Positions 5,886-62,085 of a DNA stretch of 64,000 bases are shown one piece after another. Source of the stretch: Deltaproteobacteria bacterium RIFCSPHIGHO2_01_FULL_43_49 (GTDB taxonomy: Bacteria; UBA10199; SPLOWO2-01-44-7); NCBI GenBank assembly GCA_001798075.1, contig MGRG01000005.1, positions 1,148 to 65,147 of the forward strand, given 5' to 3'. Positions within the stretch are counted from its first letter, which is position 1; every line of letters begins with the position of its first letter. The notes under the pieces were generated by a model that searched no databases, was not told the origin of the DNA, and worked only from the letters and a program-made list of their open reading frames with translations. A program made the position numbers and the translations under genes.

Positions 5886-5888
5886 TGG

Positions 5889-6785: not shown

Positions 6786-7005
6786 AAAACCTCCTTGCCA
6801 CGCCGAGAAGGCGGGCTTTATTATCTACCGGAGACCTAAATGAGCAATTGGCGTGCCAACATGAGGTTAAAAATATCGTTTCCAGGGGGGCTAAAAATTG
6901 ATAGATTAGCCGGGTTAGGGGTCAAAAATGACCTGATTTTTTGAAAAGCGTCAGATTTTTGACAGCCCGCCTTCACTAAAGTTTCGGCGAGGCTAAGGAG
7001 GTTTT

Positions 7006-21192: not shown

Positions 21193-21200
21193 GAGGATCT

Positions 21201-27736: not shown

Positions 27737-27739
27737 TTT

Positions 27740-29043: not shown

Positions 29044-29328
29044 ATGAAAACATTTCTTTCTTTTCTAGTAGTGGGGTTGCTCGGCGCTACCGCTCAAGCA
29101 GCCGGTGCAGATGGCGCAGCCCTTTTCAAGGCCAAGATGTGTGGGGCCTGCCACGCCGAAGGGAAAAAGGGGGGCGATCTCAAAAATTCCACATTGGATA
29201 AGGCGACCATGGTCCAGTTCCTGAAGGATCCCAAGGCCATGAGGCCAAAGACGACCAAGACCCCCGTAAAGGCAACGGATGAAGAATTGAGCGCCTTGGC
29301 CGATTATGTTATCAGTTTACGGAAATAA
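29044..29328 (+). CDS. small monohaem cytochrome c (paralog of 38011-38289)
   Basis: The product has a signal peptide, a single CGACH motif and a C-terminal amphipathic helix, 94 aa in total. A GGAGG Shine-Dalgarno lies upstream. Confidence 0.8.
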   Translation: MKTFLSFLVVGLLGATAQAAGADGAALFKAKMCGACHAEGKKGGDLKNSTLDKATMVQFLKDPKAMRPKTTKTPVKATDEELSALADYVISLRK

Positions 29329-29351
29329 TCGTCCCTTTAAACTATTAAGCT

Positions 29352-38010: not shown

Positions 38011-38289
38011 TTACTTTCTTAAGCTCAACACATAATCGGCCAAGGCATTAAGCTCTTCATCGGTTGCTTTGACCGCAGGCATGGTGACCTTTGGATTCAC
38101 CGATTTTGGGTCTTTCATAAATTTGACCAACGAGGCCTTATCCATCTTGGAATCTTTGAGATCTCCGCCTTTTTTCCCTGCGGCGTGACAAGCCCCGCAC
38201 ATCTTGGCTTTGAACAGCGCGGCCCCATCAGCCCCCGCGAAGGCCGATCCCGCGACAGCGACTGCTAACAAACAGAGTATGATTTTCAT
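38011..38289 (-). CDS. small monohaem cytochrome c (paralog of 29044-29328)
   Basis: GADGAALFKAKMCGACHAAGKKGGDLKDS...VKATDEELNALADYVLSLRK is about 80% identical to the 29044 product. The start is set at the internal Met with a GGAGGA Shine-Dalgarno; the ORF track extends it to 38370. Confidence 0.8.
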   Translation of the reverse strand: MKIILCLLAVAVAGSAFAGADGAALFKAKMCGACHAAGKKGGDLKDSKMDKASLVKFMKDPKSVNPKVTMPAVKATDEELNALADYVLSLRK

Positions 38290-38366
38290 GACTTCCTCCT
38301 TTTTTAAAAGAATCATAAATGGCAAAAGAGCAATATGAGCCAGATCATTCTTGGGCCTGATCTTTA

Positions 38367-39692
38367 TCATATGAGGCTTGCCACGTGAACGGCATTTTTC
38401 ATTGTATCATTCACAGAGATCCCTTCCCAGTAATTCCCAGTCAGATAAAGGCCAGGGGATTTTTGAAGGTGCGCTCTTATTTTTTCTAATTTTTTTGGAT
38501 GTCCTAGCGTGTATTGTGGCAGCGCTTTCGTGTGTCTGGTTAAGGAGGCTTCTTCGATGCGAAACGAGGAGCCAAAAATTTGTCGCAGCTCATTGAGGAC
38601 CTTTGAAATGATTTGATCCTCTCCTTCTTGAAGGATTGTGGGATTCTTGGCACCACCGACAAAACAGGTGAGCAAGGCCAAAGAATCTGGGCAGCGATTT
38701 TCAAAAATGGAAGAAGACCAGAGACACCCGAGCAAGAAATTTTTTCCGCCGGCACCCGATAGAAACCCAAAACCGTTCAAGGGATGGTTGATGAAGGATC
38801 GTTCCACGACGAGATGGATTACAGCAAGAGGGGCATAGGGGACTGTATTTAATTGGAGTGCCAAACCAGGATTTGAATCTTCCAAAAGTCTGGCGGCCTC
38901 AAAAGCAGGGAGACCCAAGATCAGAACACGAGCCTCTTCTTCACGAAGTCCCCCTTGGTGTTTCCATTGAACCTTCCAGCCCTCCTTCAATTTTGTAATC
39001 GCAATGTCCTGGCACTCCAGTTGGCAATGTTTTTGGATCGTTTGATAAAGTGCATCGGTCAAGGTTTGCATCCCCCCTTTAAAGGAGTAAAGAGTTTGCC
39101 CTTGAGACAAGAGGCGTGTTTTTTTAAGGGCCTTAAACAAGCTCCCATATTCTCTTTCCCACTCCGTTATTTTTGGCGCAACAGCCTGGATACTGAGATG
39201 TTCGCAATCGCCGGCATAAATCCCGTGAATCATCGGCTTGACCAGATTTAGGGCCTGTTTTCCTAAACGCCTTGTCACAAATTGCGCAATGCTTTCTTCT
39301 CCGTTTAAGCTTCTGGCTGCGATGAGAGGTTCCAAAATCAGGCGAAGTTTTCCCAAAGGAGTTAAAAGAGGCGTTTTTAAAAATTGGGCCGGTGACGTGG
39401 GAAAAGAAATCAATTTCCCCCGCCTCAAGACAAAACGATTTTTTGAAGACTCCCTCGCTTGGATCATTTCGCCCGTTAGTCCCAGCTCTTTAGCGTGAGC
39501 CATTAACGTATCATGGCTGGACAAAAAACTGTTGGGTCCTTTTTCCAAAAGAGTTCCATTGGTGGTGACAGTATGGAGACATCCGCCACAGCGTAAGGTC
39601 TTTTCTAATAGCAAAAAAGAAAAACCCTTTCGCTTGAGATGATAAGAGGCTGTGAGCCCCGCGATTCCGGCCCCCAATATAATGGCATCCAT
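38367..39692 (-). CDS. hemY: protoporphyrinogen/coproporphyrinogen oxidase (HemY/CgoX family, FAD-dependent)
   Basis: The N-terminus MDAIILGAGIAGLTASYHL is a FAD dinucleotide-binding motif, and the 441 aa product carries HemY-like motifs (GGCLHTV...GPNSF, C-terminal GxYxxG). Confidence 0.8.
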   Translation of the reverse strand: MDAIILGAGIAGLTASYHLKRKGFSFLLLEKTLRCGGCLHTVTTNGTLLEKGPNSFLSSHDTLMAHAKELGLTGEMIQARESSKNRFVLRRGKLISFPTSPAQFLKTPLLTPLGKLRLILEPLIAARSLNGEESIAQFVTRRLGKQALNLVKPMIHGIYAGDCEHLSIQAVAPKITEWEREYGSLFKALKKTRLLSQGQTLYSFKGGMQTLTDALYQTIQKHCQLECQDIAITKLKEGWKVQWKHQGGLREEEARVLILGLPAFEAARLLEDSNPGLALQLNTVPYAPLAVIHLVVERSFINHPLNGFGFLSGAGGKNFLLGCLWSSSIFENRCPDSLALLTCFVGGAKNPTILQEGEDQIISKVLNELRQIFGSSFRIEEASLTRHTKALPQYTLGHPKKLEKIRAHLQKSPGLYLTGNYWEGISVNDTMKNAVHVASLI

Positions 39693-42669: not shown

Positions 42670-42736
42670 CTGATCCAAATCATGTCCTCATAACTTCCCA
42701 TTTCTGCTATTTTAACCCTCAGATTTTGGAGAGAGA

Positions 42737-44332
42737 ATGGGGGAAAAAAGGCCTTGGGGTTTTTTAAAGATTGCTCCTTTTGGATGCCTTTGTCTGACCC
42801 TGGCCTGCGGCGAAATAAAACCAATCACAGACGCAGCAGCACAACTAGAAGAAGAAAGTAATGCTACCCCCAAAGTAGAAAGCCTCTTACCCCCATCTGA
42901 AACGATATTTCCCCATTCAAAAAGCTGGTCGGATCCCGTGGTACATGGGGCATGGACCATACAAAACGACTCCGATGTTTGTTTTCAATGCCACCAAAAA
43001 GATTTAGGGGGGATGGGAGGAGCCCCCGCCTGTCATTCCTGTCATCCACTTTTCCCCCATCCTGATGGGTGGGTTAAAAAAGAAAATCATGGTTCTTGGG
43101 TGTCTGCCAACGGAAAGGAAAATTGCGCTACTCAGTGTCACGGCACCGACTTCAAAGGGGGGCTTTCAAAAGTCTCGTGTGAATCCTGTCATGCGATCTA
43201 TCCCCACATGGTGACCTGGACCAATCCTGTAGAGCATGGGGCGGTTGCGAAAGGAGACGGCAAAGCGATTTGTATGAATTGCCACGGTAACACAAGCTGT
43301 TATGCGTGCCACGAAAAATACCCCCACGAAACGGGGTGGGCCGACCCTTTAAAACATGGGAAGGATGTCACTCAAAATGGCACAAACGGTTGTGCCACCC
43401 AGTGTCACGGAACCAATCTGAAGGGAGGACTGTCAGAGGTCTCCTGCGATAATTGTCATGCGAGTTATCCTCATCTTGATAACTGGAGGGATCCCACTCA
43501 ACACGGAACGGCGGCCTTAGGAAATGGTAAAACCAGTTGCGGGACAGCCAATTGTCACGGGAGCGACTTTAAGGGAAGCCTAAAAGCCCCATCCTGTTTT
43601 TCTTGTCACGCCGATTTTCCTCATACTAGTTCTCGTTGGATGACACTGAAGCCGACGACGAGTAAAACTTCTGATCGCGATGAAGGTTTCCACGGAGACC
43701 GATTCATACGGATGCAAATGTCGGGAAAGACGGGTGCTTGCGCCGAATGTCACGGTGCAAACTATGACCGTTTGATCGGTACCGGCCAATGTACGAATTG
43801 TCATCCCAATGGTGTTACCCATCGAAATACAACCCAAACAACCTGGTCTTCTTTTACGCACGGGCAGTATTACACAAGTTTCTTCAATTCCATTTCAACG
43901 AATGCCAACTGCAAGGATTGTCACGGAGGCTTTGTCGATTTCACAGACACCCAGACAAAACTCTCTTTGGAAAGTCAGTCGGGCTGCTACCGCTGCCACT
44001 GGGCTTATCCTCATAGGGCCTATGAAACTCCGATCTGGCATGAGATTTGGGAGCCCGTCGTCGCGAATAACTGTGGTGGAATGGCAAATTCCGGACACCT
44101 CCTCTATCTGACGGGGAGTTCACTCTTCACGGATGAACAAGGAAGGCGACCGACCAGCACGAACGATCCGATCAGCATCGGCGCCATCAAACATACCTGC
44201 GGCGGGTCGGCCGGTTCCTGCCATTTCAATGGTCTTCGCTCCTATAACACGCAAGCAACCTCGGCATTGTGCGGGCAATACTGTCATAGTTCAACAATGC
44301 CTTCCATCCCATCGCGGCCCCCTTGCCCTTAA
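42737..44332 (+). CDS. lipoprotein multihaem cytochrome c, paralog of the previous gene (same dihaem module repeats)
   Basis: The lipobox is LTLACGE, and the same modules recur (CFQCH...CHSCHPLFPHPDGWVKKENHGSWVSANGKENCATQCHGTDFKGGLSKVSCESCHAIYPH...). CX4CH variants CGTANCH and CGGSAGSCH are present; the 531 aa product has no Ig-like tail. Confidence 0.7.
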   Translation: MGEKRPWGFLKIAPFGCLCLTLACGEIKPITDAAAQLEEESNATPKVESLLPPSETIFPHSKSWSDPVVHGAWTIQNDSDVCFQCHQKDLGGMGGAPACHSCHPLFPHPDGWVKKENHGSWVSANGKENCATQCHGTDFKGGLSKVSCESCHAIYPHMVTWTNPVEHGAVAKGDGKAICMNCHGNTSCYACHEKYPHETGWADPLKHGKDVTQNGTNGCATQCHGTNLKGGLSEVSCDNCHASYPHLDNWRDPTQHGTAALGNGKTSCGTANCHGSDFKGSLKAPSCFSCHADFPHTSSRWMTLKPTTSKTSDRDEGFHGDRFIRMQMSGKTGACAECHGANYDRLIGTGQCTNCHPNGVTHRNTTQTTWSSFTHGQYYTSFFNSISTNANCKDCHGGFVDFTDTQTKLSLESQSGCYRCHWAYPHRAYETPIWHEIWEPVVANNCGGMANSGHLLYLTGSSLFTDEQGRRPTSTNDPISIGAIKHTCGGSAGSCHFNGLRSYNTQATSALCGQYCHSSTMPSIPSRPPCP

Positions 44333-44338
44333 CACTTT

Positions 44339-45622
44339 ATGTTTAGTTGTCAGGTCACAGATTTTTATGGTATTTCTCACAAGGTGAAAATATTGACTTT
44401 GATCCTTCCCTTTCTCCTTGCTTCCTCAATAGTGAATGCGGGGGAGTTTCATTTAAACGCAACTAGTCTTGGCCAAGTTCGCAAAAATGCGAGACTCCAA
44501 AAAGAAATCCCTGTCAACGGATACCTGGGCATGGCCTTTGCCCAGCCAACATGGGAGCTTTCGGGCGAAACAAATATGCGTGTCATTCGAGATTTCAAAA
44601 GAAAACTAGACGACTACGATCTCTACCAGGCGGTGATTCATTACAAGCCCACAGAGAAACTTCGGATCGATTCAGGTCGCCAGATTGTCAACCAGGGGTT
44701 TTCCCTTGAGATGCTCGACGGTGTCCAAACGACTATTATGCCCTGGGATCATGTCGATTTTACCGTTTATTCAGGAATTCCCCGAAGTGTTGAAAGAGAG
44801 GATTTTAACAAAAATGATGGTTTGCTGACCGGTATCTCTATTGGGATGAAAAATGTTGCCAGGACAAATTTTTCACTACACGCTGCGTGGCGCAAAAACG
44901 ACATTTATTTCATCGATCCAAAACAAAACGATGAGGCCCGTGTCGGCGCCAATTTTTCACATCAGTTTGCTGTCTCCACAACACCAATGTTGTATGGAAC
45001 CTTTGAATACGACGCGATGGGCAAGGTGATTGATACGGGTGTGGCGGGTTTTGATATTTATCCCTCCAAGCGAATTGCACTCAACATGGAGTTCAACTAT
45101 TTCAACATCAGTCGGGAAACAGATCGATTGACCATTCAAAGACTCTTCACTCAGGGAAGACAAATTGGTGGCCGCTTTTCCTCCACATGGACACTCGTTC
45201 CAAACTATTTGGATCTTGTGGAAAGCTATACTTATCAAAATGTAGAGGTAGTCAAAGGGGATCGCCGCCATGGACACATCGTCGATGCGGCCCTGCAACT
45301 CTCCCTGGATAACATTGGACTCCATATAGAACCAGGCTATTATTTTTCAAAAAGTTTTGGCGGTCGCTTACACGGGGGAAGAATTTCCATTCATGAACAA
45401 TTCACCGATAAGTTTTATACCGAAGTGGGATTTGATTTCACAAAATACAAAAAAATTACCAATGACAATGACAATGCCTATTCAGGCGTAGGTTGGGCCG
45501 GCTATGAAGTAGCCAAAGGCTTGACGATATCTGGAGGTTTTGAATACAACAAAAATAATTCATTTAACAAAGATGCTCGTGGCTCTTTTAGGCTAGATTA
45601 TCAATTTGACCATGGAAGCTAA
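44339..45622 (+). CDS. putative outer-membrane beta-barrel (porin-like) protein, candidate porin of a porin-cytochrome complex
   Basis: The signal peptide is KILTLILPFLLASSIVNA; the true start may be GTG 44384. The product is rich in alternating aromatic/polar residues and short loops, with the C-terminal ...FRLDYQFDHGS. The family assignment is inference. Confidence 0.45.
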   Translation: MFSCQVTDFYGISHKVKILTLILPFLLASSIVNAGEFHLNATSLGQVRKNARLQKEIPVNGYLGMAFAQPTWELSGETNMRVIRDFKRKLDDYDLYQAVIHYKPTEKLRIDSGRQIVNQGFSLEMLDGVQTTIMPWDHVDFTVYSGIPRSVEREDFNKNDGLLTGISIGMKNVARTNFSLHAAWRKNDIYFIDPKQNDEARVGANFSHQFAVSTTPMLYGTFEYDAMGKVIDTGVAGFDIYPSKRIALNMEFNYFNISRETDRLTIQRLFTQGRQIGGRFSSTWTLVPNYLDLVESYTYQNVEVVKGDRRHGHIVDAALQLSLDNIGLHIEPGYYFSKSFGGRLHGGRISIHEQFTDKFYTEVGFDFTKYKKITNDNDNAYSGVGWAGYEVAKGLTISGGFEYNKNNSFNKDARGSFRLDYQFDHGS

Positions 45623-46172
45623 AAAAATTTTCATAGGGGTGGTGAGCCTTCTTCTGGTGGCAAGCTCCGTTGCGGCAAAGGAAAAAGTAAAACATCCCTT
45701 TGACCTTTTTGATCATGAGATGCACACGGGGCTTTTTGAGACGGTTGAATTTCAATGTGAGAATTGTCACAAGGATCAGGAAGATTTTGCAAACAGGGAA
45801 AAGATGAATCGCCTGGGGTGTCACACCTGCCACAACAATCCCAATCCGCCACTGCCCGGAACTCAGGAGTGCACCGTTTGCCATATCGGCGGCAAATTTC
45901 CAAAACCCCAAAGTCATAAGGCGGGCTGGATTGCCAAACATGAGTCCTATGCCAAGCTCAATCCACAAGAATGCGCTCAATGTCATAGCAATGCGATGTT
46001 TTGCGTCGATTGCCATAAAAGAAGGGATACCATTCAACAGAAGGGGCATCGCCGTAACTTTAGATTTTTCCACTCGATCGAAGCGAGGGCCAATCCCAGA
46101 AAGTGTGATGCCTGTCATACCGTAAACTATTGTCAGCAGTGTCATGCCGGAGGAGGCAACTCAAAGAGATGA
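45606..46172 (+). CDS. periplasmic heptahaem cytochrome c
   Basis: The product has a signal peptide and seven CxxCH motifs in 188 aa (CENCH, CHTCH, CTVCH, CAQCH, CVDCH, CDACH, CQQCH). Confidence 0.75.
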   Translation: MTMEAKKIFIGVVSLLLVASSVAAKEKVKHPFDLFDHEMHTGLFETVEFQCENCHKDQEDFANREKMNRLGCHTCHNNPNPPLPGTQECTVCHIGGKFPKPQSHKAGWIAKHESYAKLNPQECAQCHSNAMFCVDCHKRRDTIQQKGHRRNFRFFHSIEARANPRKCDACHTVNYCQQCHAGGGNSKR

Positions 46173-46477
46173 AATCGTATTTGGCTTTACCCATTTTGCT
46201 TATTTCTGTAGGCTTTCTAACTTCCTGTGGTGGCGCCGCTCTGAATGAAGGGGAAAACTACGGAAACATCCTGAATACCTCCCAAGGTTTGACACTGACT
46301 CAAGCGGAACACCAAATCGGCTGGGGACAATCAGAGTGTACGATATGCCACAATTTAGAAAATATTCATCTGGTGGACCGAACGGGCATCACCGACATCA
46401 AGGCAGTTCATAACCAAGCATTGAGCGAAGGAATTTCTGGGTGTGCCGCCTGCCATGGAACAAACGGTGCCCCTTAA
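46169..46477 (+). CDS. dihaem cytochrome c lipoprotein
   Basis: The start is at internal Met (MKSYLALPILLISVGFLTSCGG, with a lipobox). CTICH and CAACH motifs are present. Confidence 0.6.
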   Translation: MKSYLALPILLISVGFLTSCGGAALNEGENYGNILNTSQGLTLTQAEHQIGWGQSECTICHNLENIHLVDRTGITDIKAVHNQALSEGISGCAACHGTNGAP

Positions 46478-47172
46478 ATTCCATGGCCATTTGTGTGACG
46501 AACAACATAAATACCTTCTGCAATTTCTTTATCTAGGGCAATTTCTGTTTCTTCAATTTTGAGGACATAAGAAGGGCGTTTTTGCAACAGATGAAGGGTG
46601 GCGCCCGGAATAACACCGAGCCCCGATAACCTTTCCAAGAGCGAGTGGTATTTGGGGGCAATGAAAATGATGCGATAGTTTTCTCCAACCTCTTCTAGGC
46701 TCAAGGGGGTCACCAGAGGTCTCACTTCGTTAACAAAAAGACGACAGCAATCACCGGGAGGAATAGGTCTTCCATGTGGACAGGACGGTGGGTGGCCCAA
46801 AAAAGAGCAAATTCCCTCTACTGCCTCAGGGGTGAGAACCTTTTCATGCTCCAAACGACAGGCCTGCGCCCTCACCGCTTCTTCAGAAAGATTGAAAACA
46901 ACCGCGAACAGGCGTTCGGCAAGACGATTTCGACGAATCAAAGAACGAGCCTGATTTTCACCTTTGGTGGCCAGTTTCAAACATCCATTCTTTTGCTGAA
47001 CGAGTCCTTCTTTGACGAGCTCCGAAGTAGCCCTCTCAACTTCCAAAGGGTCTACCTGAGAGAGACAATGATCCGGCTCTTCTTTCCCCACCTCTTGATT
47101 GAGCCAGGCCCTCACCAAGATGTGATCCTTGATTTCATCGAAACCCAGATCTTCTGTTGTTTCCTGTAACAT
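46474..47172 (-). CDS. DtxR/IdeR/MntR-family metal-dependent transcriptional regulator with C-terminal FeoA-like domain
   Basis: The product has a winged-helix N-terminus and metal-site motifs ACRLEHE and CPHGRPIP, as in DtxR. The C-terminal ~70 aa SH3-like segment (VRPLVTPLSLEEVGENYRIIFIAP...) resembles FeoA. Confidence 0.75.
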   Translation of the reverse strand: MLQETTEDLGFDEIKDHILVRAWLNQEVGKEEPDHCLSQVDPLEVERATSELVKEGLVQQKNGCLKLATKGENQARSLIRRNRLAERLFAVVFNLSEEAVRAQACRLEHEKVLTPEAVEGICSFLGHPPSCPHGRPIPPGDCCRLFVNEVRPLVTPLSLEEVGENYRIIFIAPKYHSLLERLSGLGVIPGATLHLLQKRPSYVLKIEETEIALDKEIAEGIYVVRHTNGHGI

Positions 47173-47174
47173 AA

Positions 47175-47420
47175 CTATTTCACCTTCTTAAAAACTTTTT
47201 GAAACCAATTGACAATCCTAGATTCGGCAACAAATTCATAACTGCAATTGGGGCATTTGAGCATGGAACATCCGCTGACCATCGCACAGCCACCACAGGC
47301 AGCCTCCCCTGCGTTGAACTGGAACCCACACAAAGGGCAGTCTTGCACCTTGGCTTTTGTCTGCTGAACTCCAACACTCGGCAATTGAAGTGCATCCATT
47401 ATAATCCTTTCAAAACCCAA
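47175..47420 (-). CDS. small cysteine-rich (zinc-ribbon-like) protein between feoB and the regulator
   Basis: The 81 aa product has the pattern CPLCG...CGGC...C...CPNC. I cannot assign a family. Confidence 0.4.
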   Translation of the reverse strand: MGFERIIMDALQLPSVGVQQTKAKVQDCPLCGFQFNAGEAACGGCAMVSGCSMLKCPNCSYEFVAESRIVNWFQKVFKKVK

Positions 47421-49402
47421 TTCAAAACACCCCCGACTAAAAAAGCAAAAGGGAAAACGAAAAAAACCATCCGCGCTGCTACCTTGCCACCATGCTCTTT
47501 AACCATCATAAAGACATTGGCAACACAAGGGACAAACAATGTAATGACGACAAGTGCCACCAGGGCCTGAACAACAGAGAGCTGGCCGTGGCTATACATA
47601 TCAAAAAAACCGGTTGCCCCGTAATCACGTCTCAAAAAACCGATCAAAAAAGCATTCGCTGCCTGAGCCGGCAATCCCAAAATGGAAACGACAAGAGGGG
47701 CCGCCAGCTTTTGAATCCGAGTCAAAAGATGGACTGCATCAAGAAGAAACAAAATGAAGGTCCCAAGCAAGAAAAGAGGTATGGCTTCCTTCACGTACCA
47801 TTCCAAATGAGAAAGGGTTTTCTTGGCGACATTGGAAAATTTAGGAACACGCAACGGGGGAATTTCCATTACAAAGGCATTTCCCTCCCCCGCAATGATC
47901 TTGTTCGACGCGAATCCCACAAAAAACATCACGCCCAGCATGACGAAGAGCCAGACCCAAAAGGCCCACATGGGCATTGTCCCAAACATCCCCAATAAAA
48001 CTCCCAATTGAGCAGAACAGGGGACAGCAAGTGCCAGCAGGAGAGTCACAATGAGACGCTGTTTTTTCGTCTCAAGAATCCTTGTCGTCAATGTTGCCAT
48101 CGTATCGCACCCAAGCCCTAAAACCATTGGCAAAACTGCCTTGCCATTGAGCCCCATCCCTTTGAAGAGACGATTGACCATTACTGCAAGTCTTGGAAGA
48201 TAACCGGAATCTTCCATCAAACTAAAGGCAATGAAAAATGTGGTGACAATGGGAAGGACAATCGCAAAACCGTAAGAAAGCCCCATCACCACCAACCCAT
48301 AGGGCCCGACAAAACAATCATGGAGTATTTTGAAAATCGGGTTGGCCTCGCCACTCAAAACATAACTGCCGACTAGAAATCCCTCCTCCACATTGTGGGC
48401 ATGAGAAAATGGCAATAGTTTGTCGAAAAACCAGATAAAAGCCGGTGAAATATATTTTGCAAAGATGCCATTTTCAATAAAGTCGACCGCAGTACCCGCA
48501 CCGAATTTTCCAACAAAGAGATAAACCAACTCCAAAATGCCGGCCAAGACGATCATGCCTGCAATGGGATGCATTGTCCAAGCAGATAGCCATGCCCCCA
48601 CAGCGCGTCCTCTTTTTTGCGTGGTCATCACCTTTTCCAATAGGGATTGGGTCAACGTACTTCTTTCTCGATTCATCAGAAAACTGACCGGCTCCGCAAA
48701 ATAGGCGGCCACTTGCCGGCACTGTTCTTCAATAATGTTTTGAACATTGTTTGACAGTTGAGATTTAAAGCGAGTGCTAATGTGTCTATCCCCGGCAAGC
48801 AGCATACTGGCCACCGACAGACGGCCGTGTATTTCTCCAGGCAGTGCACCCGTAATCGTTTTCAACGCCTTTGCAAAAATGGTCGAATATCCCCATTTAA
48901 ATGTGCAGGGCCTTGCATCTTTTATTCGTTCTTTTAATAGCGGGAGTCCAATTTTTCGGATCGCAACGGTTGTGACGACGGGAATACCCAAAACGGATTC
49001 CAGTTTTTTAGCGTCAATTTTAATGCCGGCACGGGCTGCCTCATCACACATATTGATGACCAAAACCATCGGAACACCCATTTCTTGGAGCTGCAAAGTA
49101 AGCGGTAATGCCCGCATCAGATTTTTAGCATCGGCAATCTGGATGACCAGACCCTCATTTTGAATCAGCAGATCACGAGTTACACACTCATCTTCAGACA
49201 TTGGGATTAAAGAATTGATGCCGGGTGTATCAACAACCTGATATTTTTTATCATCGATGAGCGCTTCTCCCTGAGACAAAGCGACAGTTGTACCCGGGTA
49301 ATTGGAGACTGTGGCGTAGGTCCCTGTGAGGTAGCCGAAGATGACACTTTTGCCCACATTGGGATTCCCCACCAAAAAGATCTTTGTTGAACTATTTACC
49401 AT
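47399..49402 (-). CDS. feoB: ferrous iron transport protein B
   Basis: The N-terminal G-protein domain (IFLVGNPNVGKSVIFGYLTG...VVDTPG) is followed by a polytopic membrane domain, 667 aa in total. Confidence 0.9.
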   Translation of the reverse strand: MVNSSTKIFLVGNPNVGKSVIFGYLTGTYATVSNYPGTTVALSQGEALIDDKKYQVVDTPGINSLIPMSEDECVTRDLLIQNEGLVIQIADAKNLMRALPLTLQLQEMGVPMVLVINMCDEAARAGIKIDAKKLESVLGIPVVTTVAIRKIGLPLLKERIKDARPCTFKWGYSTIFAKALKTITGALPGEIHGRLSVASMLLAGDRHISTRFKSQLSNNVQNIIEEQCRQVAAYFAEPVSFLMNRERSTLTQSLLEKVMTTQKRGRAVGAWLSAWTMHPIAGMIVLAGILELVYLFVGKFGAGTAVDFIENGIFAKYISPAFIWFFDKLLPFSHAHNVEEGFLVGSYVLSGEANPIFKILHDCFVGPYGLVVMGLSYGFAIVLPIVTTFFIAFSLMEDSGYLPRLAVMVNRLFKGMGLNGKAVLPMVLGLGCDTMATLTTRILETKKQRLIVTLLLALAVPCSAQLGVLLGMFGTMPMWAFWVWLFVMLGVMFFVGFASNKIIAGEGNAFVMEIPPLRVPKFSNVAKKTLSHLEWYVKEAIPLFLLGTFILFLLDAVHLLTRIQKLAAPLVVSILGLPAQAANAFLIGFLRRDYGATGFFDMYSHGQLSVVQALVALVVITLFVPCVANVFMMVKEHGGKVAARMVFFVFPFAFLVGGVLNWVLKGL

Positions 49403-51949: not shown

Positions 51950-52381
51950 CTACTTTCCCTTGAACCTCTTTAAATAGTGAATGACCGTTTTTAAATGTTC
52001 TTGTTCATCCGCCAAAATCCCCTTGATTAAAAGGGCTTCTTTGGGGGGAAGTGGCAGCTTGAGTATCTCTTCGTACAGTCGGATGGATTGGAGTTCCATT
52101 TCGATGTGCGCCTGAAGGGATGCCCTGAGGGAATCGGAACGAGGGACTCGCTTCGGCTCTGGAAGGGAAGGCGTAGAACCTGTTACGGTCGCAACAATCT
52201 CGCTGAATACTTTTGAATGAACCGCCTCTTCTTCAGCAAATCGTTTGAAGGTCTTGCCAATGTGTTCCCCATCGATGATCTTTTGATGGAACAGCTCTGC
52301 TTCATGCTCGTAGAGAGATTCATCTGCCAACTCCTGAATCGCGGCTGTTAAAATCTTTTCCATTTTTTCTCTCGACGGCAT
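51950..52381 (-). CDS. ferritin-like (diiron-carboxylate four-helix-bundle-like) protein embedded in the ccm operon
   Basis: Paired E...ExxH motifs are present (YEHEAELFHQ, EEEAVHSK, EMELQSIRLYEE, ADEQEHLK). The assignment is tentative. Confidence 0.4.
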   Translation of the reverse strand: MPSREKMEKILTAAIQELADESLYEHEAELFHQKIIDGEHIGKTFKRFAEEEAVHSKVFSEIVATVTGSTPSLPEPKRVPRSDSLRASLQAHIEMELQSIRLYEEILKLPLPPKEALLIKGILADEQEHLKTVIHYLKRFKGK

Positions 52382-52912: not shown

Positions 52913-53581
52913 TCATTGAATCTCCCCCATTATTTGATTCTCAATTTTTTCTTTAAGCCGACTTAAATGAAATCGATAATAGATAAAAAGAATGAGAATG
53001 AATAAAAAGGCAACAGCATTCAGTCGCAAACTCAAAACCATCTGGGGATCAACCGTGGAGGGACTTGATTGAACCTGGTGAAGAGTCCTCCACCATTTCA
53101 CGCTAAAATAGACGATTGGGACGTTTAGAAAAATAAGCAATCCCAACGGAGCGCTCAAACGGGCCCGTTTTTCTCGATCATCCACAAAAGCCCTGAAGGC
53201 CAAATATCCCACATACAAAAACAATAGAATCGCGGTGGTGGTAAGCCTTGCATCCCAAGTCCACCAAACGCCCCAAGTGGGGCGACCCCAAATGGAACCC
53301 AAAGACAAAGTCAGGGCGGTCAAGACACAACCTACTTCCGCGGAACTAGCTGCCAAATGATCCCAAAACATTTTTTTGCGAACCAAATATAAAATACTAC
53401 TGATAAAAACGATTGAATAGGCGATAAAAGAATTCCAGGCAGCGGGGACATGGACATACATCAGCTTTTGCACCTCTCCCATTTGGGCATCGGGCGGGCT
53501 TCTAAAAAGCCCCCACCATTGTGCAAAGATAAAAAAACCGATAGCCACAATTAAACTTCCATATTGAAAAATCTTCTTCAC
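52913..53581 (-). CDS. ccmC: haem exporter protein CcmC
   Basis: The WWD domain motif GRPTWGVWWTWDARLTTT is present in a 6-TM topology. Confidence 0.85.
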   Translation of the reverse strand: MKKIFQYGSLIVAIGFFIFAQWWGLFRSPPDAQMGEVQKLMYVHVPAAWNSFIAYSIVFISSILYLVRKKMFWDHLAASSAEVGCVLTALTLSLGSIWGRPTWGVWWTWDARLTTTAILLFLYVGYLAFRAFVDDREKRARLSAPLGLLIFLNVPIVYFSVKWWRTLHQVQSSPSTVDPQMVLSLRLNAVAFLFILILFIYYRFHLSRLKEKIENQIMGEIQ

Positions 53582-53584
53582 TTT

Positions 53585-54262
53585 TTAAGCCTCCAAAAGT
53601 AATCCTGCAGTGAGCAAGCAGGCCGACAAAAAAATACTATCAAAAACAAAAAGCATCTCTATCCAAGGTCTGGCTTGAAGAAAAGGGTCTCCTTCCAGGG
53701 CGTATTGTGTGGCAAAAACGCAAGCCAAAAGCAAGGGGATTAGCATCGGGAAAAGCAAAAGCGGTAGCATCACTTGACGCGCTCTGGTCTTGGTAATGAG
53801 GAGGGCATAGAAAGTTCCCAAGGTGGCTATGCCTAAATCTCCCAGTAAAAAAATTAAAACCAAATTCCAAGGTTCTTTAGGGACATCCAAATCATAAAGA
53901 ACCATCATCATCAAAAGAACGACCGTTTGGACGATGAGGACAAAGAGGAAGTTGGTGAAAAGCTTCCCTAAAAAAATGGCGCGATGACTGACCGAGTACA
54001 AAATGAGGCGATCGAGACAACCTTCTTCCGCCTCGGCTTGAAAAGAACGGTCGAGGGCGAGAACAGCACTGAACAAGACAACGAGCCAAAGGAGACCCGG
54101 CGCTAATTTTTTGAGCAAAGCAGTCTCCGGCCCGATCGCAAAACTAAAAAGAAAGATGATTAAAATCCCGAAAAAAAGGATGCTGTTCAATGTCTCCCTC
54201 TTTCTCAGTTCGGAGAGGAGATCCTTATGACAGATGGCAGCCAAACAACGAATGAAATTCAT
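53585..54262 (-). CDS. ccmB: haem exporter membrane protein CcmB
   Basis: The 225 aa polytopic protein sits between ccmA and ccmC. The motif pattern FxxxxxKDLxxExR is typical of CcmB. Confidence 0.75.
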   Translation of the reverse strand: MNFIRCLAAICHKDLLSELRKRETLNSILFFGILIIFLFSFAIGPETALLKKLAPGLLWLVVLFSAVLALDRSFQAEAEEGCLDRLILYSVSHRAIFLGKLFTNFLFVLIVQTVVLLMMMVLYDLDVPKEPWNLVLIFLLGDLGIATLGTFYALLITKTRARQVMLPLLLFPMLIPLLLACVFATQYALEGDPFLQARPWIEMLFVFDSIFLSACLLTAGLLLEA

Positions 54263-54942
54263 AGGATGACGCTTGATGGAATGTTTTTGGGGTCACCAAA
54301 ATAGGCAACCCTCCCTTGATTCAAAACCATGGCCTTGTCACAAAGGGGTAAAACCTCATGATGATCGTGGGAGGCCAAAAGGAGGGTTAGACCCCCCTTT
54401 TTCCAGTTTTGGATGCAGCGGTTCATCAAGGTTTTGCCTTCCCGGTCCAGATTTGCATGGGGTTCATCTAACAAAACAAATTCAGGACTTTCTAAAAGGA
54501 TTCTTGCAAGGCTTAAGCGCTTTCGCATCCCGACAGAGAAAGAGGCGATCGGTTTTCCGCCCACCGCATTGAGCCCTACTTCAGCCATGGCCTCGCGAAG
54601 CTTTTTCACCAGAGGTTTTCGGCCCTTTATCACACAGGAAAATTTTAAATTTTCCTCAGCGGTCAGTGTCTTGTAAAGGCCCAGCTCGTGACCCAACCAC
54701 TCAACCTGATTTCTAATCTTGAGGGTGTTCTGTCTGATATCGAAACCCGCAATGGTTCCCCCTCCCGTCGTCGGCTCCAAAAGAGTGGCCAAGATTTTAA
54801 GGAGGGTTGATTTGCCACAACCATTGGGCCCCAAAATTGCGATACAATCTCCCTTGTTCGCTACAAGCCCAATATCCCTCAAAGCCCAATGAGTGGCAAA
54901 ACGTTGACTAATTCCCGTTAACTCAACGACTCTGGAATTCAT
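54259..54942 (-). CDS. ccmA: haem exporter ATP-binding protein CcmA
   Basis: Walker A (GPNGCGKSTLLK), the ABC signature (FSVGMRKRLSLAR) and Walker B (LLDEP) are all present. Confidence 0.85.
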   Translation of the reverse strand: MNSRVVELTGISQRFATHWALRDIGLVANKGDCIAILGPNGCGKSTLLKILATLLEPTTGGGTIAGFDIRQNTLKIRNQVEWLGHELGLYKTLTAEENLKFSCVIKGRKPLVKKLREAMAEVGLNAVGGKPIASFSVGMRKRLSLARILLESPEFVLLDEPHANLDREGKTLMNRCIQNWKKGGLTLLLASHDHHEVLPLCDKAMVLNQGRVAYFGDPKNIPSSVIL

Positions 54943-55028: not shown

Positions 55029-55322
55029 ATGTATGGTTTTGGACATTCTGGGTTTTATTCCTTTGAGCCACACATCGCTGTCTTTTTGGGATTGATGGCC
55101 TTAGGTTTCGGTTACTGGATTTTTATACAAGCCAAATCCGACACAAGTTGTTCCAAGTTAGGTAAATTTTTTGGGGTTTTGATATCCATTGTTGCGGCTT
55201 TGGGGCTCATCTGCATCCTTTATTTAAGCATCAAACGCTGTTGCATGGCTCCAAAGGGAGACTGGTACAAAAGCCATATGCAAATGATGGCACCACCTGA
55301 TGAAAATCATCCTGGTAAATGA
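55029..55322 (+). CDS. small hypothetical membrane protein
   Basis: The 97 aa product has two hydrophobic helices. Confidence 0.35.
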   Translation: MYGFGHSGFYSFEPHIAVFLGLMALGFGYWIFIQAKSDTSCSKLGKFFGVLISIVAALGLICILYLSIKRCCMAPKGDWYKSHMQMMAPPDENHPGK

Positions 55323-55411
55323 TTTCTATCATCTTTATATGAGGGCTTTTTTGTGGTTGTTTAGAATTCAGATATTAGAATTTAGGATTTTCCAAAAAAA
55401 AGGGGGGGATT

Positions 55412-56659
55412 ATGAAAAAATTTTTCTGTGTAGCAGGGCTGCTTTCTTTTTTATGCGTCTGGTTGTTTCCTTCCAGTGAAGCCCAAGCCGTTTCGCAATG
55501 GGCCCGAAAATACAAGATGAATTGCCAATCTTGTCACACGGCTTTTCCCAGACTTAACTATTTTGGCGAAAAATTTCAGCGCAATGGCTTCCAGCTTCCC
55601 GAGACAGAAGATGGAGACGAAAATAAGGAAAAACTAAGTGACACGGCTTTCATTGATAATCTTATCAATATGTTTGGTGTTCGTATTGCGGTCTCCCCGG
55701 CATCTATCACCACCAATGGGCTCACAAGACCGGATGGAACAGTGACTACCCGAACCAGCTTTGGTAACACCGATTGGGTCCAATTTTTCTCGGCTGGAAG
55801 TATTTTTAAAAATGCCTCCATTTTTATTGAGACAGAAATAACGAATACTGCCATCAAAAATAACTGGTTTACTCTGGGATATCACAACTTGTTTGGTCAT
55901 AGTCTTTTAAACCTCCGTGTTGGCAAACTAGGTGTCATGAATTGGGTTGGTCAAAGTGGGCGCTTGAGAATGATTCCAAACATCCAAGTGGAGGGTTGGA
56001 AAAATTTTCTGACCGCGGAGGGGACGACTTCAGCATCAACCACCTTGCAAGATCAGGTGGCTATGGGTGAACCCCAGCCTGGCATTGAGCTCTACGGTTA
56101 TAAGGGGCCTTTCCTTTATTCAGTAGGAGTTGTGAACGGGAATGCCTTGACGGACAACAACGAATTTAAAAACGTGTTTGGAACTCTGCGTCTGGAAGCA
56201 ACCGATGGACCCATCCAAGGAAGTTCCATCTCCGGGTGGGGCTATTGGGGAACAGACACGTTTAGTACCGTGCGCCGCAAAGATCGTTTCTATCGTGTCT
56301 CCGGTGCGGCCAACTTAAGATGGAAAAACTGGGATGTGATTGGCGCCTTTCTCCATGGACGGGACAGCGACTGGATTTTATCAACAGCCGCACCAAATCG
56401 AAACACAACTCACGCTGCCTCGGGGCAGGTGGGTTACTTGATCAATCCCAAGTGGTATGCAGCAGCTCAATATGATTATGTCACCGACACATTTAAGAAT
56501 ACGGCGACAACATCCAATTTTTATCACAAGGCGTCGCCTTCGATCTGGTTCATGCCAAGAGAAAACATGCGAATTGGATTGGTCCAGCGCTTTGAATTTA
56601 AGGGAAGAGCGGGTGGCAGACAGCATGAATTTCTCGTTCATGCAAGGGCCATGTTTTAA
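55412..56659 (+). CDS. Cyc2-like fused monohaem cytochrome c-porin (candidate outer-membrane Fe(II) oxidase)
   Basis: The product has a signal peptide and a single CQSCH within ~15 residues of the predicted mature N-terminus (ARKYKMNCQSCHTAFPRLNYFGEKF). The following ~370 aa have an amphipathic beta-strand character and end ...VHARAMF in a C-terminal Phe. Size (415 aa) and architecture match the Cyc2 family. Confidence 0.65.
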   Translation: MKKFFCVAGLLSFLCVWLFPSSEAQAVSQWARKYKMNCQSCHTAFPRLNYFGEKFQRNGFQLPETEDGDENKEKLSDTAFIDNLINMFGVRIAVSPASITTNGLTRPDGTVTTRTSFGNTDWVQFFSAGSIFKNASIFIETEITNTAIKNNWFTLGYHNLFGHSLLNLRVGKLGVMNWVGQSGRLRMIPNIQVEGWKNFLTAEGTTSASTTLQDQVAMGEPQPGIELYGYKGPFLYSVGVVNGNALTDNNEFKNVFGTLRLEATDGPIQGSSISGWGYWGTDTFSTVRRKDRFYRVSGAANLRWKNWDVIGAFLHGRDSDWILSTAAPNRNTTHAASGQVGYLINPKWYAAAQYDYVTDTFKNTATTSNFYHKASPSIWFMPRENMRIGLVQRFEFKGRAGGRQHEFLVHARAMF

Positions 56660-59643: not shown

Positions 59644-60570
59644 CTATGAATCCCCCTTGAGAAACTTTCTTCTTCTTTCTGCCTGTTTTTTGGGACAAAA
59701 ACTAAGGACATTGACCGGTGAATATCTCACCACAAGCTCCGCAACACTTCCCATCAACAGATGGCTCAAACCCGTGTGCCCGTGTGTCGGTATCAAAATA
59801 ATGTCCGAATCGGTTCGCTTTGCAGCTTTTGATATCTCATCAACAACGGGACCCATGGAAATATAAGGCTCGATTTTTAGTGAGCGGTGTCTGGTAATGA
59901 TCGACTGTAATTTGCGCATCGCTGTTCTCTTGGCTTTCTTTGCATGATCAGAAAAACCGATAACGTGCGCCAAAGTCAGATTACATTCGACCTGTTTGCT
60001 TAGATGAACACCCAACAACAAGGCTTCTTCCGTAAACTTCGAAAAATCGGTGGGAATCAAAACCCCTCTAATCTTTTTGGGCGGAAGGTTGGGGGGTCTT
60101 TTGGCAATCAAGACCGGCACCGGCGAATAACGCACCACATTTTCAGCCACACTCCCTAAAAAGATGTGCTTTAAGCCTTTTCTCCCATGAGTTCCCACGA
60201 TGACCAAATCGGGCTTTTCCTTTTGAATAATTCGCAAAATGGTGGGAATGGTTTGCCCAATCCGAATGTTTATTGCCACACGTCCAAGGCCTGGCAATGT
60301 GCTTTTATCCAAAAATTGGCGAACGGATTCATAAGCCCCTAGTTGTTTTTGAATGATTTTCTTGATTTCACGGCTTTTCACTGTCTGTTTTTCCTCGAGA
60401 AGAAAATCCCTTCCAGCAACATAAAAAAATTTTAGATGAGACCCAAAATAAGCGCTGAAATTAACCCCCCAATCGAGAGCTTTTTTGCTGGCATCCGATA
60501 GATCATGAAAAATAATAATTTTTTTTAACATAAAAAGTCCTCCGATAACTCCTTCATACACGACCGACAA
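59644..60570 (-). CDS. tandem universal stress protein (UspA) domain protein
   Basis: Two Usp domains each end in a G-x2-G-x9-G-S motif (VGTHGRKGLKHIFLGSVAENVV and IPTHGHTGLSHLLMGSVAELVV). Confidence 0.75.
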   Translation of the reverse strand: MSVVYEGVIGGLFMLKKIIIFHDLSDASKKALDWGVNFSAYFGSHLKFFYVAGRDFLLEEKQTVKSREIKKIIQKQLGAYESVRQFLDKSTLPGLGRVAINIRIGQTIPTILRIIQKEKPDLVIVGTHGRKGLKHIFLGSVAENVVRYSPVPVLIAKRPPNLPPKKIRGVLIPTDFSKFTEEALLLGVHLSKQVECNLTLAHVIGFSDHAKKAKRTAMRKLQSIITRHRSLKIEPYISMGPVVDEISKAAKRTDSDIILIPTHGHTGLSHLLMGSVAELVVRYSPVNVLSFCPKKQAERRRKFLKGDS

Positions 60571-61318
60571 TATCCTTCAAGAGATATCCTATCAAGTAAG
60601 CCAGTCCAGAAGCAACACCACCAATTGCCAACGTCTCGAGACCCGCGAGATACCACCTCTCGGTTACGAACCGGCCCTTCACAGCACCTACAGTGAAAAA
60701 TGCAATGCCCGTTAAAACAGAGCTATAGAAAAAGGGACGAGATAAATGAACATGTGTCACCACTTCGTAGACAAAAGTGAGAATGGGTAAAGATCCAAAA
60801 AGAACAAAGGCGGCAAAGGTTGACAATGCCGCTTTCGATGGTGAAGGGGACTCCAAGGTCATCCCCAATTCTTCTTTCAACATCGTTTCTTCCCATAATT
60901 TTTCATCAGCCGTGATGATTTTCACTGCCTTTTCCAAATCAACACCTTTAAAACCTTTTTTTGCAAAAATTTGTCGGACCTCTTCTTTTTCCCCTTCAGG
61001 AAAGGTGGCGATGTGATTGCGTTCCCTATCGCGGGCTTTCTCCTTTTGTTGTCGTTCAGTCCGAGTGGACACGAAATTGCCGACCGCCATGCTAAAACCA
61101 TCCCCCACCAAATTGGCCAGACCGAGGATGACAACGATACCTGCAGAAAGATTGGCCCCAATGACACCCGCAACCACAGCAAAGGTCGTGACGATTCCGT
61201 CAATGGCGCCGTAAACGAAATCACGCAGATAACTGTGAGCCGGTTTCATTTCGAGACGTTCTCGAATGGCCTCCGGCGTATGAGATTCCCGAAGATGTCT
61301 TAATAATTCATCCACCAT
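60554..61318 (-). CDS. VIT1/CCC1-family iron/manganese transporter
   Basis: The motif LRDFVYGAIDGIVTTFAVVAGVIGANL and the five-TM pattern of the VIT family are present. Confidence 0.8.
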   Translation of the reverse strand: MVDELLRHLRESHTPEAIRERLEMKPAHSYLRDFVYGAIDGIVTTFAVVAGVIGANLSAGIVVILGLANLVGDGFSMAVGNFVSTRTERQQKEKARDRERNHIATFPEGEKEEVRQIFAKKGFKGVDLEKAVKIITADEKLWEETMLKEELGMTLESPSPSKAALSTFAAFVLFGSLPILTFVYEVVTHVHLSRPFFYSSVLTGIAFFTVGAVKGRFVTERWYLAGLETLAIGGVASGLAYLIGYLLKDIVGRV

Positions 61319-61326
61319 TTAGATTT

Positions 61327-62085
61327 ATGGAACCATTTGACACATTTTACAATATTCCCTATAGCTTCGGCTCCATGATTAAATCTCCTTCATTGAATTG
61401 TCAAACCTGCAAAAGCAGGGGACAGAGCGTTTTTTGCGATTTGAGCGAGGATCATCTTAAAGAAATTGATGCCTGTAAAACAACCAATAAGTACAAAACA
61501 CATCAAATCATCTTCTACGAAGGGAACAAACCCCATGGTCTTTACTGCGTTGCCTCCGGAAAGGTGAAAGTTTACAAAATGGATAAAGAAGGTCATCAGC
61601 AAATTGTGCGTCTTGCGGGACCGGGAGATATTGTGGGCTACAGAAGTCTTTTGGCCGATCAAAACTACTCCGCGACTGCGGAAACTTTGGAAGAGGCCGA
61701 TATCTGTTTCGTCGATAAAAAAACTTTTTTTCATGTTTTGGAAACGCACCCCGTAACGGCGTTTCATGTCATGTCTGCTTTGGCTCAAGACCTTGAAAAG
61801 GCGGAAAAAAAATTGATCGACATGGCCCACAAAAATATTCGAGAACGACTGGCGGAATTGCTACTGGTTTTTCAGAAAAAATATGGGGAAAAGTCTGGAA
61901 ACGGAGTTCATCTTAAAATCTCGCTGACCCGCGAAGAACTGGCAGAAATGATCGGCACCACACAAGAATCGGTCATCCGTTTAATTACGGAATTCAAAAA
62001 TGACGGGCTCATTCAAGTCGATGGTCGTGACATTACCCTTCTGAATGTCAAAAAGTTGGTCGAGACAGCAAACCTCCCGGAGTAA
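61327..62085 (+). CDS. Crp/Fnr-family transcriptional regulator with N-terminal Cys cluster (FNR-like)
   Basis: The N-terminal NCQTCKSRGQSVFC is followed by a cNMP-binding-like beta-barrel and a C-terminal HTH (LTREELAEMIGTTQESVIRLITEFKNDGLI). The start may be the internal Met at 61375. Confidence 0.8.
   Translation: MEPFDTFYNIPYSFGSMIKSPSLNCQTCKSRGQSVFCDLSEDHLKEIDACKTTNKYKTHQIIFYEGNKPHGLYCVASGKVKVYKMDKEGHQQIVRLAGPGDIVGYRSLLADQNYSATAETLEEADICFVDKKTFFHVLETHPVTAFHVMSALAQDLEKAEKKLIDMAHKNIRERLAELLLVFQKKYGEKSGNGVHLKISLTREELAEMIGTTQESVIRLITEFKNDGLIQVDGRDITLLNVKKLVETANLPE

Follow-up and report, generated by a model that had tools for sequence, protein, structure and literature searches.

The window, a stretch of 64,000 nucleotides from Deltaproteobacteria bacterium RIFCSPHIGHO2_01_FULL_43_49 (contig MGRG01000005.1, positions 1,148 to 65,147 of the forward strand), carries at the edge of a ~35-kb cytochrome island a cyc2-like gene, whose product joins a signal peptide and a single haem c site to a 16-strand porin-like barrel. 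Cyc2 is the most widely used metagenome marker gene for microbial Fe(II) oxidation. A sequence-only reading had named this gene a Cyc2-like cytochrome-porin and candidate Fe(II) oxidase, and that call is supported overall: none of the three observations that it listed as fatal to itself (no significant match to a Cyc2 hidden Markov model (HMM), a predicted structure other than a beta-barrel, or a CxxCH within a cleaved signal region) was made. The open reading frame (ORF) was recovered in the ORF list at the position, on the strand and with the length given earlier (415 amino acids, aa), and is laid out as follows:

55412..56659, + strand: cyc2-like ORF, ATG start, 415 aa
55412..55489, + strand: signal peptide (aa 1-26), with a predicted signal peptidase I cleavage site AQA/VS read from the sequence
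55487..55513, + strand: variant of the Cyc2 signature, A-V-S-Q-W-A-R-K-Y (aa 26-34), its Arg five residues before the first haem Cys
55523..55537, + strand: haem c site CQSCH (aa 38-42); C38, C41 and H42 invariant in 36 sequences
55547..55555, + strand: PxL motif P-R-L (aa 46-48); P46, R47 and L48 invariant, the Pro being the fourth residue after the haem His
55673..56656, + strand: OprP-like 16-strand beta-barrel (aa 88-415) with a C-terminal R-x-M-F signature

Judging from its relatives, the gene is real and conserved. A protein of 100% identity is on deposit under the label 'hypothetical protein' (OGQ05831.1 and others) from Deltaproteobacteria bacterium RIFCSPLOWO2_01_44_7, a metagenome-assembled genome (MAG) from the Rifle aquifer. 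A word-indexed search returned 139 relatives (identity 74%-34% among the 120 listed); almost all are 400-460 aa long, and none carries a Pfam domain or has an informative name. When phmmer was run exhaustively against 1.84 billion cluster representatives, 1465 proteins matched at E<=1e-3, of which 198 reached E<=1e-10 and 49 reached E<=1e-30. No Pfam or NCBIfam model matches the protein above threshold, the sole hit being TIGR01904 at E 0.05; searches of solved structures by sequence, using either the full-length profile or the haem domain alone, gave chance matches only; and a literature search on the protein's accession numbers found no paper.

The N-terminus opens with the positively charged MKK, continues into a hydrophobic core (FFCVAGLLSFLCVWLF) and runs on to PSSEAQA|VSQW, with no lipobox; residues 2-17 are helical in the AlphaFold 2 (AF2) model. 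Across 36 aligned homologues drawn from many phyla, the basis for the statements of conservation in the clade, the A-x-A directly precedes a conserved [VT][SA]QW block throughout, and cleavage after Ala26 is the natural reading, by inspection, because the two always abut. The signal peptide claimed at the outset is thus upheld on the same kind of inspection. CQSCH is the only CxxCH in the protein and starts 12 residues past the predicted cleavage site, in agreement with the earlier placement within ~15 residues of the mature N-terminus; because it lies this far into the mature chain rather than in the cleaved region, the haem site would survive removal of the leader.

Read through, the stretch is A-V-S-Q-W-A-R-K-Y-KMN-C-QS-C-H-TAF-P-R-L, and the haem site with its flanking motif forms the most conserved part of the protein: R32 is invariant, and A26, Q29, K33 and Y34 are conserved at >=90%. 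The invariant charged residues of the barrel in the clade are R91, K133, E140, R184, D248, R303, D308, D355 and R412. At the very C-terminus (56645-56656, aa 412-415), R412 and M414 are invariant parts of the clade signature R-x-M-F, where canonical Cyc2-type relatives have D-x-A-F. Besides H42, M414 is the only invariant Met or His, and as pure speculation it might serve as a distal haem ligand.

The remainder of the chain had been described as beta-barrel-like with an aromatic C-terminal residue, and this is borne out by a predicted 16-strand barrel in a protein that ends ...HARAMF. The top structural match of the barrel is the phosphate porin OprP, so that by both model and match it is a 16-strand OprP/OprO-like porin domain of the kind found in the Cyc2 family. 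The phosphate-selective porins OprP and OprO themselves (PDB 2o4v, 4rjw) share 8% sequence identity with the cyc2-like protein and carry no haem domain. One distant relative has a Pfam Porin_O_P domain. The protein does not belong to the MtrB/PioB family (PF11854 / TIGR03509, ~26 strands), having no Pfam or NCBIfam match and 16 strands; the true MtrB/PioB of the window is a separate gene (21201-23363).

Relation to Cyc2 and the SQW clade

Keffer et al. (2021) define Cyc2 by a signal peptide, one CXXCH, a 16-strand OprP/OprO-like porin and two sequence motifs: the consensus AXPXFAR[Q/K][T/Y], with five residues between the Arg and the first haem Cys, and a PXL motif four residues past the haem His, the latter described for Cyc2, MtoD and Cyc1. 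Their reference tree dropped sequences shorter than 365 aa or lacking PXFAR[Q/K][T/Y], and the FeGenie paper uses a length cut-off for Cyc2 of 375 aa. The window protein has a signal peptide (by inspection), a single N-terminal CXXCH, a length of 415 aa (>=365) and the PXL motif. Against A-x-P-x-F-A-R-[Q/K]-[T/Y] it matches in register and at five of the seven specified positions (A, A, R, K, Y), with Pro replaced by Ser and Phe by Trp. The same architecture had been called diagnostic of Cyc2: homology to Cyc2-type proteins is supported, but 'diagnostic' was too strong because these two replacements take the protein outside the strict PXFAR[Q/K][T/Y] pattern. All 181 SQW-type sequences that we collected would likewise fail that pattern.

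Several comparisons connect the SQW-type proteins with canonical ones. More distant phmmer matches (E 1e-12 to 1e-20, 430-530 aa) have the canonical form, e.g. AIPAFARKYxTSCxTCHxxxPxLNxFG. When 36 SQW proteins were aligned by hhalign with 67 canonical-motif proteins, the probability was 100% (E 2.1e-71, 384 columns), and the alignment took in the cytochrome domain and nearly the entire barrel. An HMM built from the 67 canonical-motif proteins only, which stood in for a Cyc2 reference model, gave the window protein 279.7 bits and matched it along positions 1-402 of the 418 in the model, a score that is biased towards the window protein in that the 67 were gathered as matches to it.

A link to a protein with assayed activity is also possible. 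By BLASTP the window protein is 30% identical over 269 aa (E 5e-25) to P0271 (459 aa, MEF9426393.1) of 'Ca. Mariimomonas ferrooxydans', an organism whose relatives of the window protein comprise the full-length P0271 and two partial N-terminal copies. When the cluster-3 Cyc2 of 'Ca. M. ferrooxydans' was expressed in E. coli, a 49-kDa haem protein was obtained, and the cells oxidised Fe(II) faster than controls in a ferrozine assay (PMC13647500). P0271 is probably the protein assayed there, since one full-length and two partial copies fit the paper and 459 aa fits the 49-kDa band. Apart from 'Ca. Mariimomonas ferrooxydans', profile searches and cluster look-ups for Acidithiobacillus ferrooxidans, PV-1, Gallionellaceae and Leptospirillum returned almost only MAG proteins, and tblastn against plasmids for such Cyc2 reference sequences gave no match.

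We aligned 385 full-length relatives (181 SQW-type, 183 with PxF and 21 others) and built a neighbour-joining tree from Poisson distances. One branch holds the 181 SQW-type sequences with six near-variants and one PxF sequence, set against the remaining 182 PxF sequences; the split was recovered exactly in 53 of 60 bootstrap replicates and within three taxa in 60 of 60. Mean identity is 0.42 within the SQW clade and 0.23 across the split, and the clade ends in [IV]-R-x-M-F. With one genome scanned per GTDB species, 111 relatives came to light; those of the SQW type all stem from MAGs, none from a cultured organism. Their labels include Deltaproteobacteria, Nitrospinota, Nitrospirae, Zixibacteria, Elusimicrobia, Ignavibacteria, Bacteroidota, Aminicenantes, Eisenbacteria, Chlamydiae, Lentisphaerae, Kiritimatiellales, Oligoflexia/Bdellovibrionales, Gemmatimonadota, Acidobacteria and others. 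In practice SQW-type proteins may already be counted as Cyc2, because FeGenie-based surveys report 'Cyc2 cluster 3' from Zixibacteria, Ignavibacteriales, Eisenbacteria and Aminicenantes.

Among described systems, Cyc2 cluster 3 (Leptospirillum Cyt572; 'Ca. Mariimomonas ferrooxydans' Cyc2, PMC13647500) likewise has a signal peptide, a lone CxxCH soon after the start of the mature chain, A..xARKY, an Arg-Cys spacing of five, PxL and a 16-strand barrel. In contrast, the window protein has Ser-Gln-Trp in place of Pro-x-Phe, ends R-x-M-F rather than D-x-A-F, is 415 aa long as against 459 aa, and falls in a separate clade with ~23% mean identity to the canonical sequences. Compared by description, the Cyc2 of Mariprofundus ferrooxydans PV-1 (cluster 1) and that of A. 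ferrooxidans (cluster 2) share the published architecture of a monohaem cytochrome with a 16-strand OprP/OprO-like porin, as well as a proposed hand-over to periplasmic cytochromes c; unlike them, the gene studied here has no rus-operon or cyc1 context, and its host is an uncultured 'Deltaproteobacteria' MAG, not a known iron oxidiser. We are highly confident in the architecture of the protein and in its family relationship to Cyc2. Since it fails the strict motif filter and groups in a clade of its own, we file it, on this sequence evidence, in a divergent Cyc2-like sister clade that lies outside clusters 1-3 in their operational definition.

Gene neighbourhoods and Crp/Fnr-type boxes

In total the window holds 15 c-type cytochrome genes and 100 CxxCH motifs. 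The features that bear on the cyc2-like gene are:

20239-21192, + strand: MtrA/DmsE-family decahaem cytochrome (TIGR03508, 263.6 bits; cut-off 192.2)
21201-23363, + strand: MtrB/PioB porin (TIGR03509, 270.3 bits; cut-off 240)
24777-28947, - strand: Rieske protein, cytochrome b fused to dihaem c, pentahaem protein and dihaem/EB_dh (ethylbenzene-dehydrogenase-like) protein
29044-35552, + strand: operon for a 94-aa monohaem c, a 19-haem protein, a 10-haem/cytochrome b561 fusion and a 13-haem NapC/NrfH-like protein
29044..29328, + strand: the monohaem cytochrome c of that operon (94 aa, one CxxCH), with a paralogue at 38011-38370, - strand
35560-37990: NrfD / 4Fe-4S / tetrahaem module
40165-46477, + strand: 12-haem protein (Big_5 domains), 11-haem protein, 427-aa protein, 7-haem and 2-haem proteins
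46474-49402, - strand: DtxR-type repressor/FeoA fusion, 81-aa Cys-rich ORF and FeoB (iron homeostasis)
52913-54942, - strand: ccmA/B/C, upstream of the cyc2-like gene and divergent from it
55298..55331: two palindromes, TGATGAAAATCA and TGATTTCTATCA, candidate regulatory sites ending 103 and 81 nucleotides before the cyc2-like start codon
56697-57740, - strand: hemA (TIGR01035, 299 bits), immediately 3' of the cyc2-like gene
60554-61318, - strand: VIT1-family iron exporter (iron homeostasis)
61327..62085, + strand: Fnr-like Crp-family regulator (Pfam cNMP_binding and HTH_Crp_2; best NCBIfam match Fnr, 102 bits, below cut-off)

Beyond ccmA/B/C lie ccmE, a rubrerythrin gene, ccmF and a TlpA/CcmG-like gene, and on the far side of the cyc2-like gene follow hemA, a cNMP-binding protein, a beta-CASP nuclease, Usp, VIT1 and the Fnr-like regulator. 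The sequence-only reading had placed the gene beside hemA and the ccm operon; the positions are correct, but the adjacency is functionally uninformative and not conserved, and we reject it as functional evidence: hemA stands beside orthologues in none of 84 loci, and ccmF lies within 8 kb of the orthologue in two of 56. Proximity to ccm genes in particular says little about the cyc2-like gene because cytochrome genes and CxxCH motifs are so numerous in the window. As a separate observation, the rubrerythrin/ferritin-like gene (51950-52381, - strand) interrupts the cytochrome c maturation operon, with ccmE on one side of it and ccmF on the other.

The neighbourhoods of orthologues were compared in two sets: 62 dereplicated loci, in which CxxCH ORFs were counted, and 56 SQW-type loci, searched by tblastn within 8 kb. 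A CxxCH protein is encoded no more than three genes from the clade gene in 42 of the 62, and haem-protein ORFs make up 63/348 (18%) within three genes as against 21/501 (4%) further out. In 20 of the 62, after removal of one FeoA false positive, the immediate neighbour is a gene on the same strand for a monohaem cytochrome c of 100-170 aa. Among the 56 loci, NapC/NirT-type genes occur in 21, Rieske and cytochrome b genes together in 10, MtrA-like genes in 10, MtrB in four and feoB in two. From these counts, with NapC and Rieske genes frequent and hemA and ccmF absent or rare, the conserved partners are electron carriers on the way to the quinone pool, and genes for haem synthesis or cytochrome maturation are not among them.

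Five loci with Pfam annotation display these partners in a recurring pattern. In Elusimicrobia the order is ResB/CcsA, MtrA-like, MtrB_PioB, cyc2-like, monohaem c, multihaem-cytochrome b561, NapC-like, Rieske and cytochrome b; in Zixibacteria it is cNMP-binding, Rrf2, cyc2-like, MtrA-like, MtrB_PioB, two monohaem c, Rieske, cytochrome b, multihaem and NapC-like. A Chlamydiota MAG has two Crp-family genes followed by cyc2-like, monohaem c and NapC-like genes, and a 7-Mb contig has monohaem c, cyc2-like, Rieske, cytochrome b, multihaem and NapC-like genes. The locus of a 51%-identical 'Deltaproteobacteria' relative (L001) runs Crp, aa3-type oxidase genes, feoB, feoA, cyc2-like, ccmA-I and cytochromes, with the aa3-type oxidase operon 3 kb upstream and feoB-feoA directly upstream on the same strand, and in locus L005 VIT1 lies near the cyc2-like gene. 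In six loci (L019, L037, L048, L049, L063 and L005), which span several phyla, the cyc2-like gene, a monohaem c gene and a gene for a ~200-aa tri/tetrahaem protein form, in this order, a compact three-gene unit, the last having a NapC/NirT match in L005. Many of the neighbouring monohaem proteins have PDLS and K-H-x3-FKG motifs in common.

Within the window, the 94-aa monohaem c (29044..29328) is the candidate periplasmic partner of the cyc2-like protein, as it is of the same general type as the monohaem c genes that flank the cyc2-like gene elsewhere. The pair at 20239-23363 is, by its family matches, a complete MtrAB/MtoAB/PioAB-type system and thus a second outer-membrane conduit in the same island. 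MtoAB, PioAB and MtrAB resemble the cyc2-like protein in being outer-membrane conduits with similar partners downstream (a monohaem c like MtoD and a NapC/CymA type), and they adjoin the cyc2-like gene in Elusimicrobia and Zixibacteria; they differ in consisting of two proteins, with a 10-haem wire in a ~26-strand barrel, and are not homologous to the one-haem 16-strand fusion.

The core of the Crp/Fnr box, TGAT-N4-ATCA, occurs 12 times in the window against 1.6 expected (~7-fold enriched), and none of 100 shuffles reached 12 copies, the maximum being six. The copies are at 20188, 28969, 39734, 40108, 42671, 55298, 55320, 58260 and 62093, and also at 8320, 36144 and 38358; nine or ten of the 12 are in promoter positions, although the window is 93% coding. 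Besides the two palindromes upstream of the cyc2-like gene, one box ends 40 nucleotides before the MtrA-like gene, one lies between the divergent Rieske/cytochrome b and monohaem c/19-haem operons, and others precede a hemY-like gene, the 12-haem gene and the 11-haem gene; further boxes lie between the cNMP-binding and beta-CASP genes and after the Fnr-like gene. Similarly, the 300 nucleotides upstream of the orthologue contain a box in 7 of 64 loci, where 0.9 would be expected; five of the closest relatives (L001, L006, L008, L009 and L010) are among the seven. The Fnr-like regulator has Cys25-x2-Cys28-x8-Cys37 and Cys127, an arrangement that recalls the iron-sulfur ligands of Fnr; it is possibly a [4Fe-4S] oxygen sensor, and we regard it as the candidate binder of the boxes. 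The distribution of boxes suggests one regulon over MtrAB, the multihaem clusters, the Rieske/cytochrome b operon and the cyc2-like gene, in which case the latter would respond to oxygen or redox state as part of one regulon with the other cytochromes of the outer membrane and periplasm.

Possible roles of the cytochrome-porin

The most likely role of the protein, and one that we favour by a small measure over all others taken together, is that of an outer-membrane gate for electrons between Fe(II) and the periplasm; Fe(II) oxidation as its physiological function is put forward with the same guarded preference. Under such a scheme the protein would be exported by Sec and cleaved at AQA|VS, and the neighbouring Ccm system would attach one haem c to CQSCH. 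The remaining ~330 residues would fold as an OprP-like 16-strand barrel, inserted by the beta-barrel assembly machinery (BAM) via the C-terminal ...MF, with the haem domain placed either within the pore or at its periplasmic mouth. In that position the haem would exchange single electrons with a small dissolved species entering the pore, most probably Fe2+. A soluble monohaem cytochrome c would take up the electron and hand it on, either to the quinone pool through a complex of NapC/CymA or Rieske/cytochrome b type or to a terminal oxidase or reductase. At low oxygen the Fnr-like regulator would probably switch on the gene along with those for the MtrAB-type conduit and for the large multihaem cytochromes.

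Several points weigh against this reading. The cyc2-like gene has no adjacent cytochrome partner in the window, the nearest being 9 kb off; no terminal oxidase or carbon-fixation genes were found within the window; and the window also holds, with its MtrAB-type conduit and 10- to 19-haem cytochromes, equipment typical of metal reducers. SQWARKY departs at P and F from the strict signature, and a clade that stands apart from 182 of the 183 sampled canonical sequences may have diverged in function. An Fnr-like regulon, moreover, fits anaerobic respiration as well as microaerobic oxidation.

The main alternative, conceivable if unlikely, is that the same protein works with the opposite or a two-way flow as an anaerobic outlet for extracellular electron transfer, in which quinol electrons would travel via NapC/CymA and a monohaem c to the pore haem and there reduce soluble Fe(III) chelates or other small acceptors. 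The DmsE/MtrA decahaem, the MtrB/PioB porin and the 10- to 19-haem cytochromes of the island are consistent with such an outlet, as are the Fnr-type box common to these cytochromes and the cyc2-like gene and the fact that the commonest neighbour in the clade is a NapC/CymA-type quinol dehydrogenase; FeGenie also gives cluster-3 Cyc2 the tag 'possible iron reduction', and this type of Cyc2 occurs in known iron reducers. However, all Cyc2 homologues assayed so far oxidise Fe(II), a single pore haem would be a poor reductase for insoluble oxides, and the MtrAB homologues MtoAB and PioAB also run in the oxidising direction.

Less probable again is a function in iron homeostasis, in which surface oxidation of Fe(II), co-controlled with iron transport genes, would serve detoxification or conditioning for Feo uptake. 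In the window, the feoB gene, the DtxR-FeoA fusion and the VIT1 exporter flank the cyc2-like gene on its two sides at distances of no more than 8 kb, and the feoB-feoA pair of L001 and the VIT1 gene of L005 provide similar cases elsewhere; yet Feo linkage is rare (the 2/56 loci given above) beside the common cytochrome, NapC and Rieske/cytochrome b partners, and the upstream Crp/Fnr-type boxes are shared with respiratory cytochromes, not with feo genes. That the protein is simply an OprP-like anion or solute porin, with an N-terminal haem that is structural or sensory and carries no respiratory electron flux, is very improbable because the haem motif is its most conserved element and its recurrent partners are electron carriers rather than phosphate- or solute-uptake genes, despite the OprP match of the barrel, the one distant relative with Porin_O_P and the many invariant charged residues of the clade barrel.

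A broader proposal, which we offer as possible but rather doubtful, is that SQW-type proteins are a fourth, undescribed branch of Cyc2, spread over some >=15 phylum or class names and screened out by the motif filter, with an unusually conserved and charged barrel interior and an invariant C-terminal Arg-x-Met that is maybe haem-ligating. Together with a monohaem c and a CymA-like quinol dehydrogenase, they would form a minimal three-protein conduit that operates anaerobically under Fnr-type control, for instance in nitrate-dependent Fe(II) oxidation or in soluble Fe(III) reduction, unlike the microaerobic clusters 1-3.

As an iron-redox gene the cyc2-like gene is credible; the novelty is modest and lies in the definition of the clade, its conserved partners and a putative regulon, not in a new kind of system; if the protein behaves like other Cyc2, it is an ordinary, previously unannotated member of the family. 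If SQWARKY variants are functional, motif-based filters overlook a whole branch with members in lineages of groundwater and sediment ('Deltaproteobacteria' MAGs, Nitrospinota, Zixibacteria, Elusimicrobia, Ignavibacteria, Aminicenantes and Chlamydiota), and estimates of subsurface iron cycling would change. The trio of cyc2-like protein, monohaem c and NapC/CymA represents a testable minimal path from cell surface to quinone pool, and the Cyc2-type and MtrAB-type conduits under one putative Fnr-like regulon offer a case for studying the choice between soluble and solid iron and the direction of flow.

Other features of the window

The multihaem proteins of the island have features of their own. 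The products of 29044-35552 are unusually large membrane-anchored multihaem/b-type fusions: the protein with 19 CxxCH is 906 aa long and carries a formate-dehydrogenase-gamma-like cytochrome b domain, and homologues of the 10-haem/b561 fusion and of the 13-haem NapC/NrfH-like protein adjoin the cyc2-like gene in Elusimicrobia. The proteins encoded at 40165-46477 contain several Cx3-4CH sites too; the 427-aa protein among them has no family match and is possibly the porin of a second porin-cytochrome cluster. At 2239-7953 there are five successive ORFs of ~300-500 aa (2239-3219, 3216-4721, 4872-5885, 5889-6785 and 7006-7953), with no Pfam match at E<=1e-5.

A scan for sigma-70 promoters and terminators around the cyc2-like gene was uninformative. 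Between ccmA and the cyc2-like gene is a 97-aa ORF (55029-55322, + strand) with two hydrophobic segments, which we considered and rejected as a part of the system, it not being conserved beside orthologues. It may not be a gene at all, given this lack of conservation and a 3' end that overlaps one of the Crp/Fnr-type boxes. Both this ORF and the cyc2-like gene are preceded by the same A7-8/G6-7 leader (AAAAAAGGGGG).

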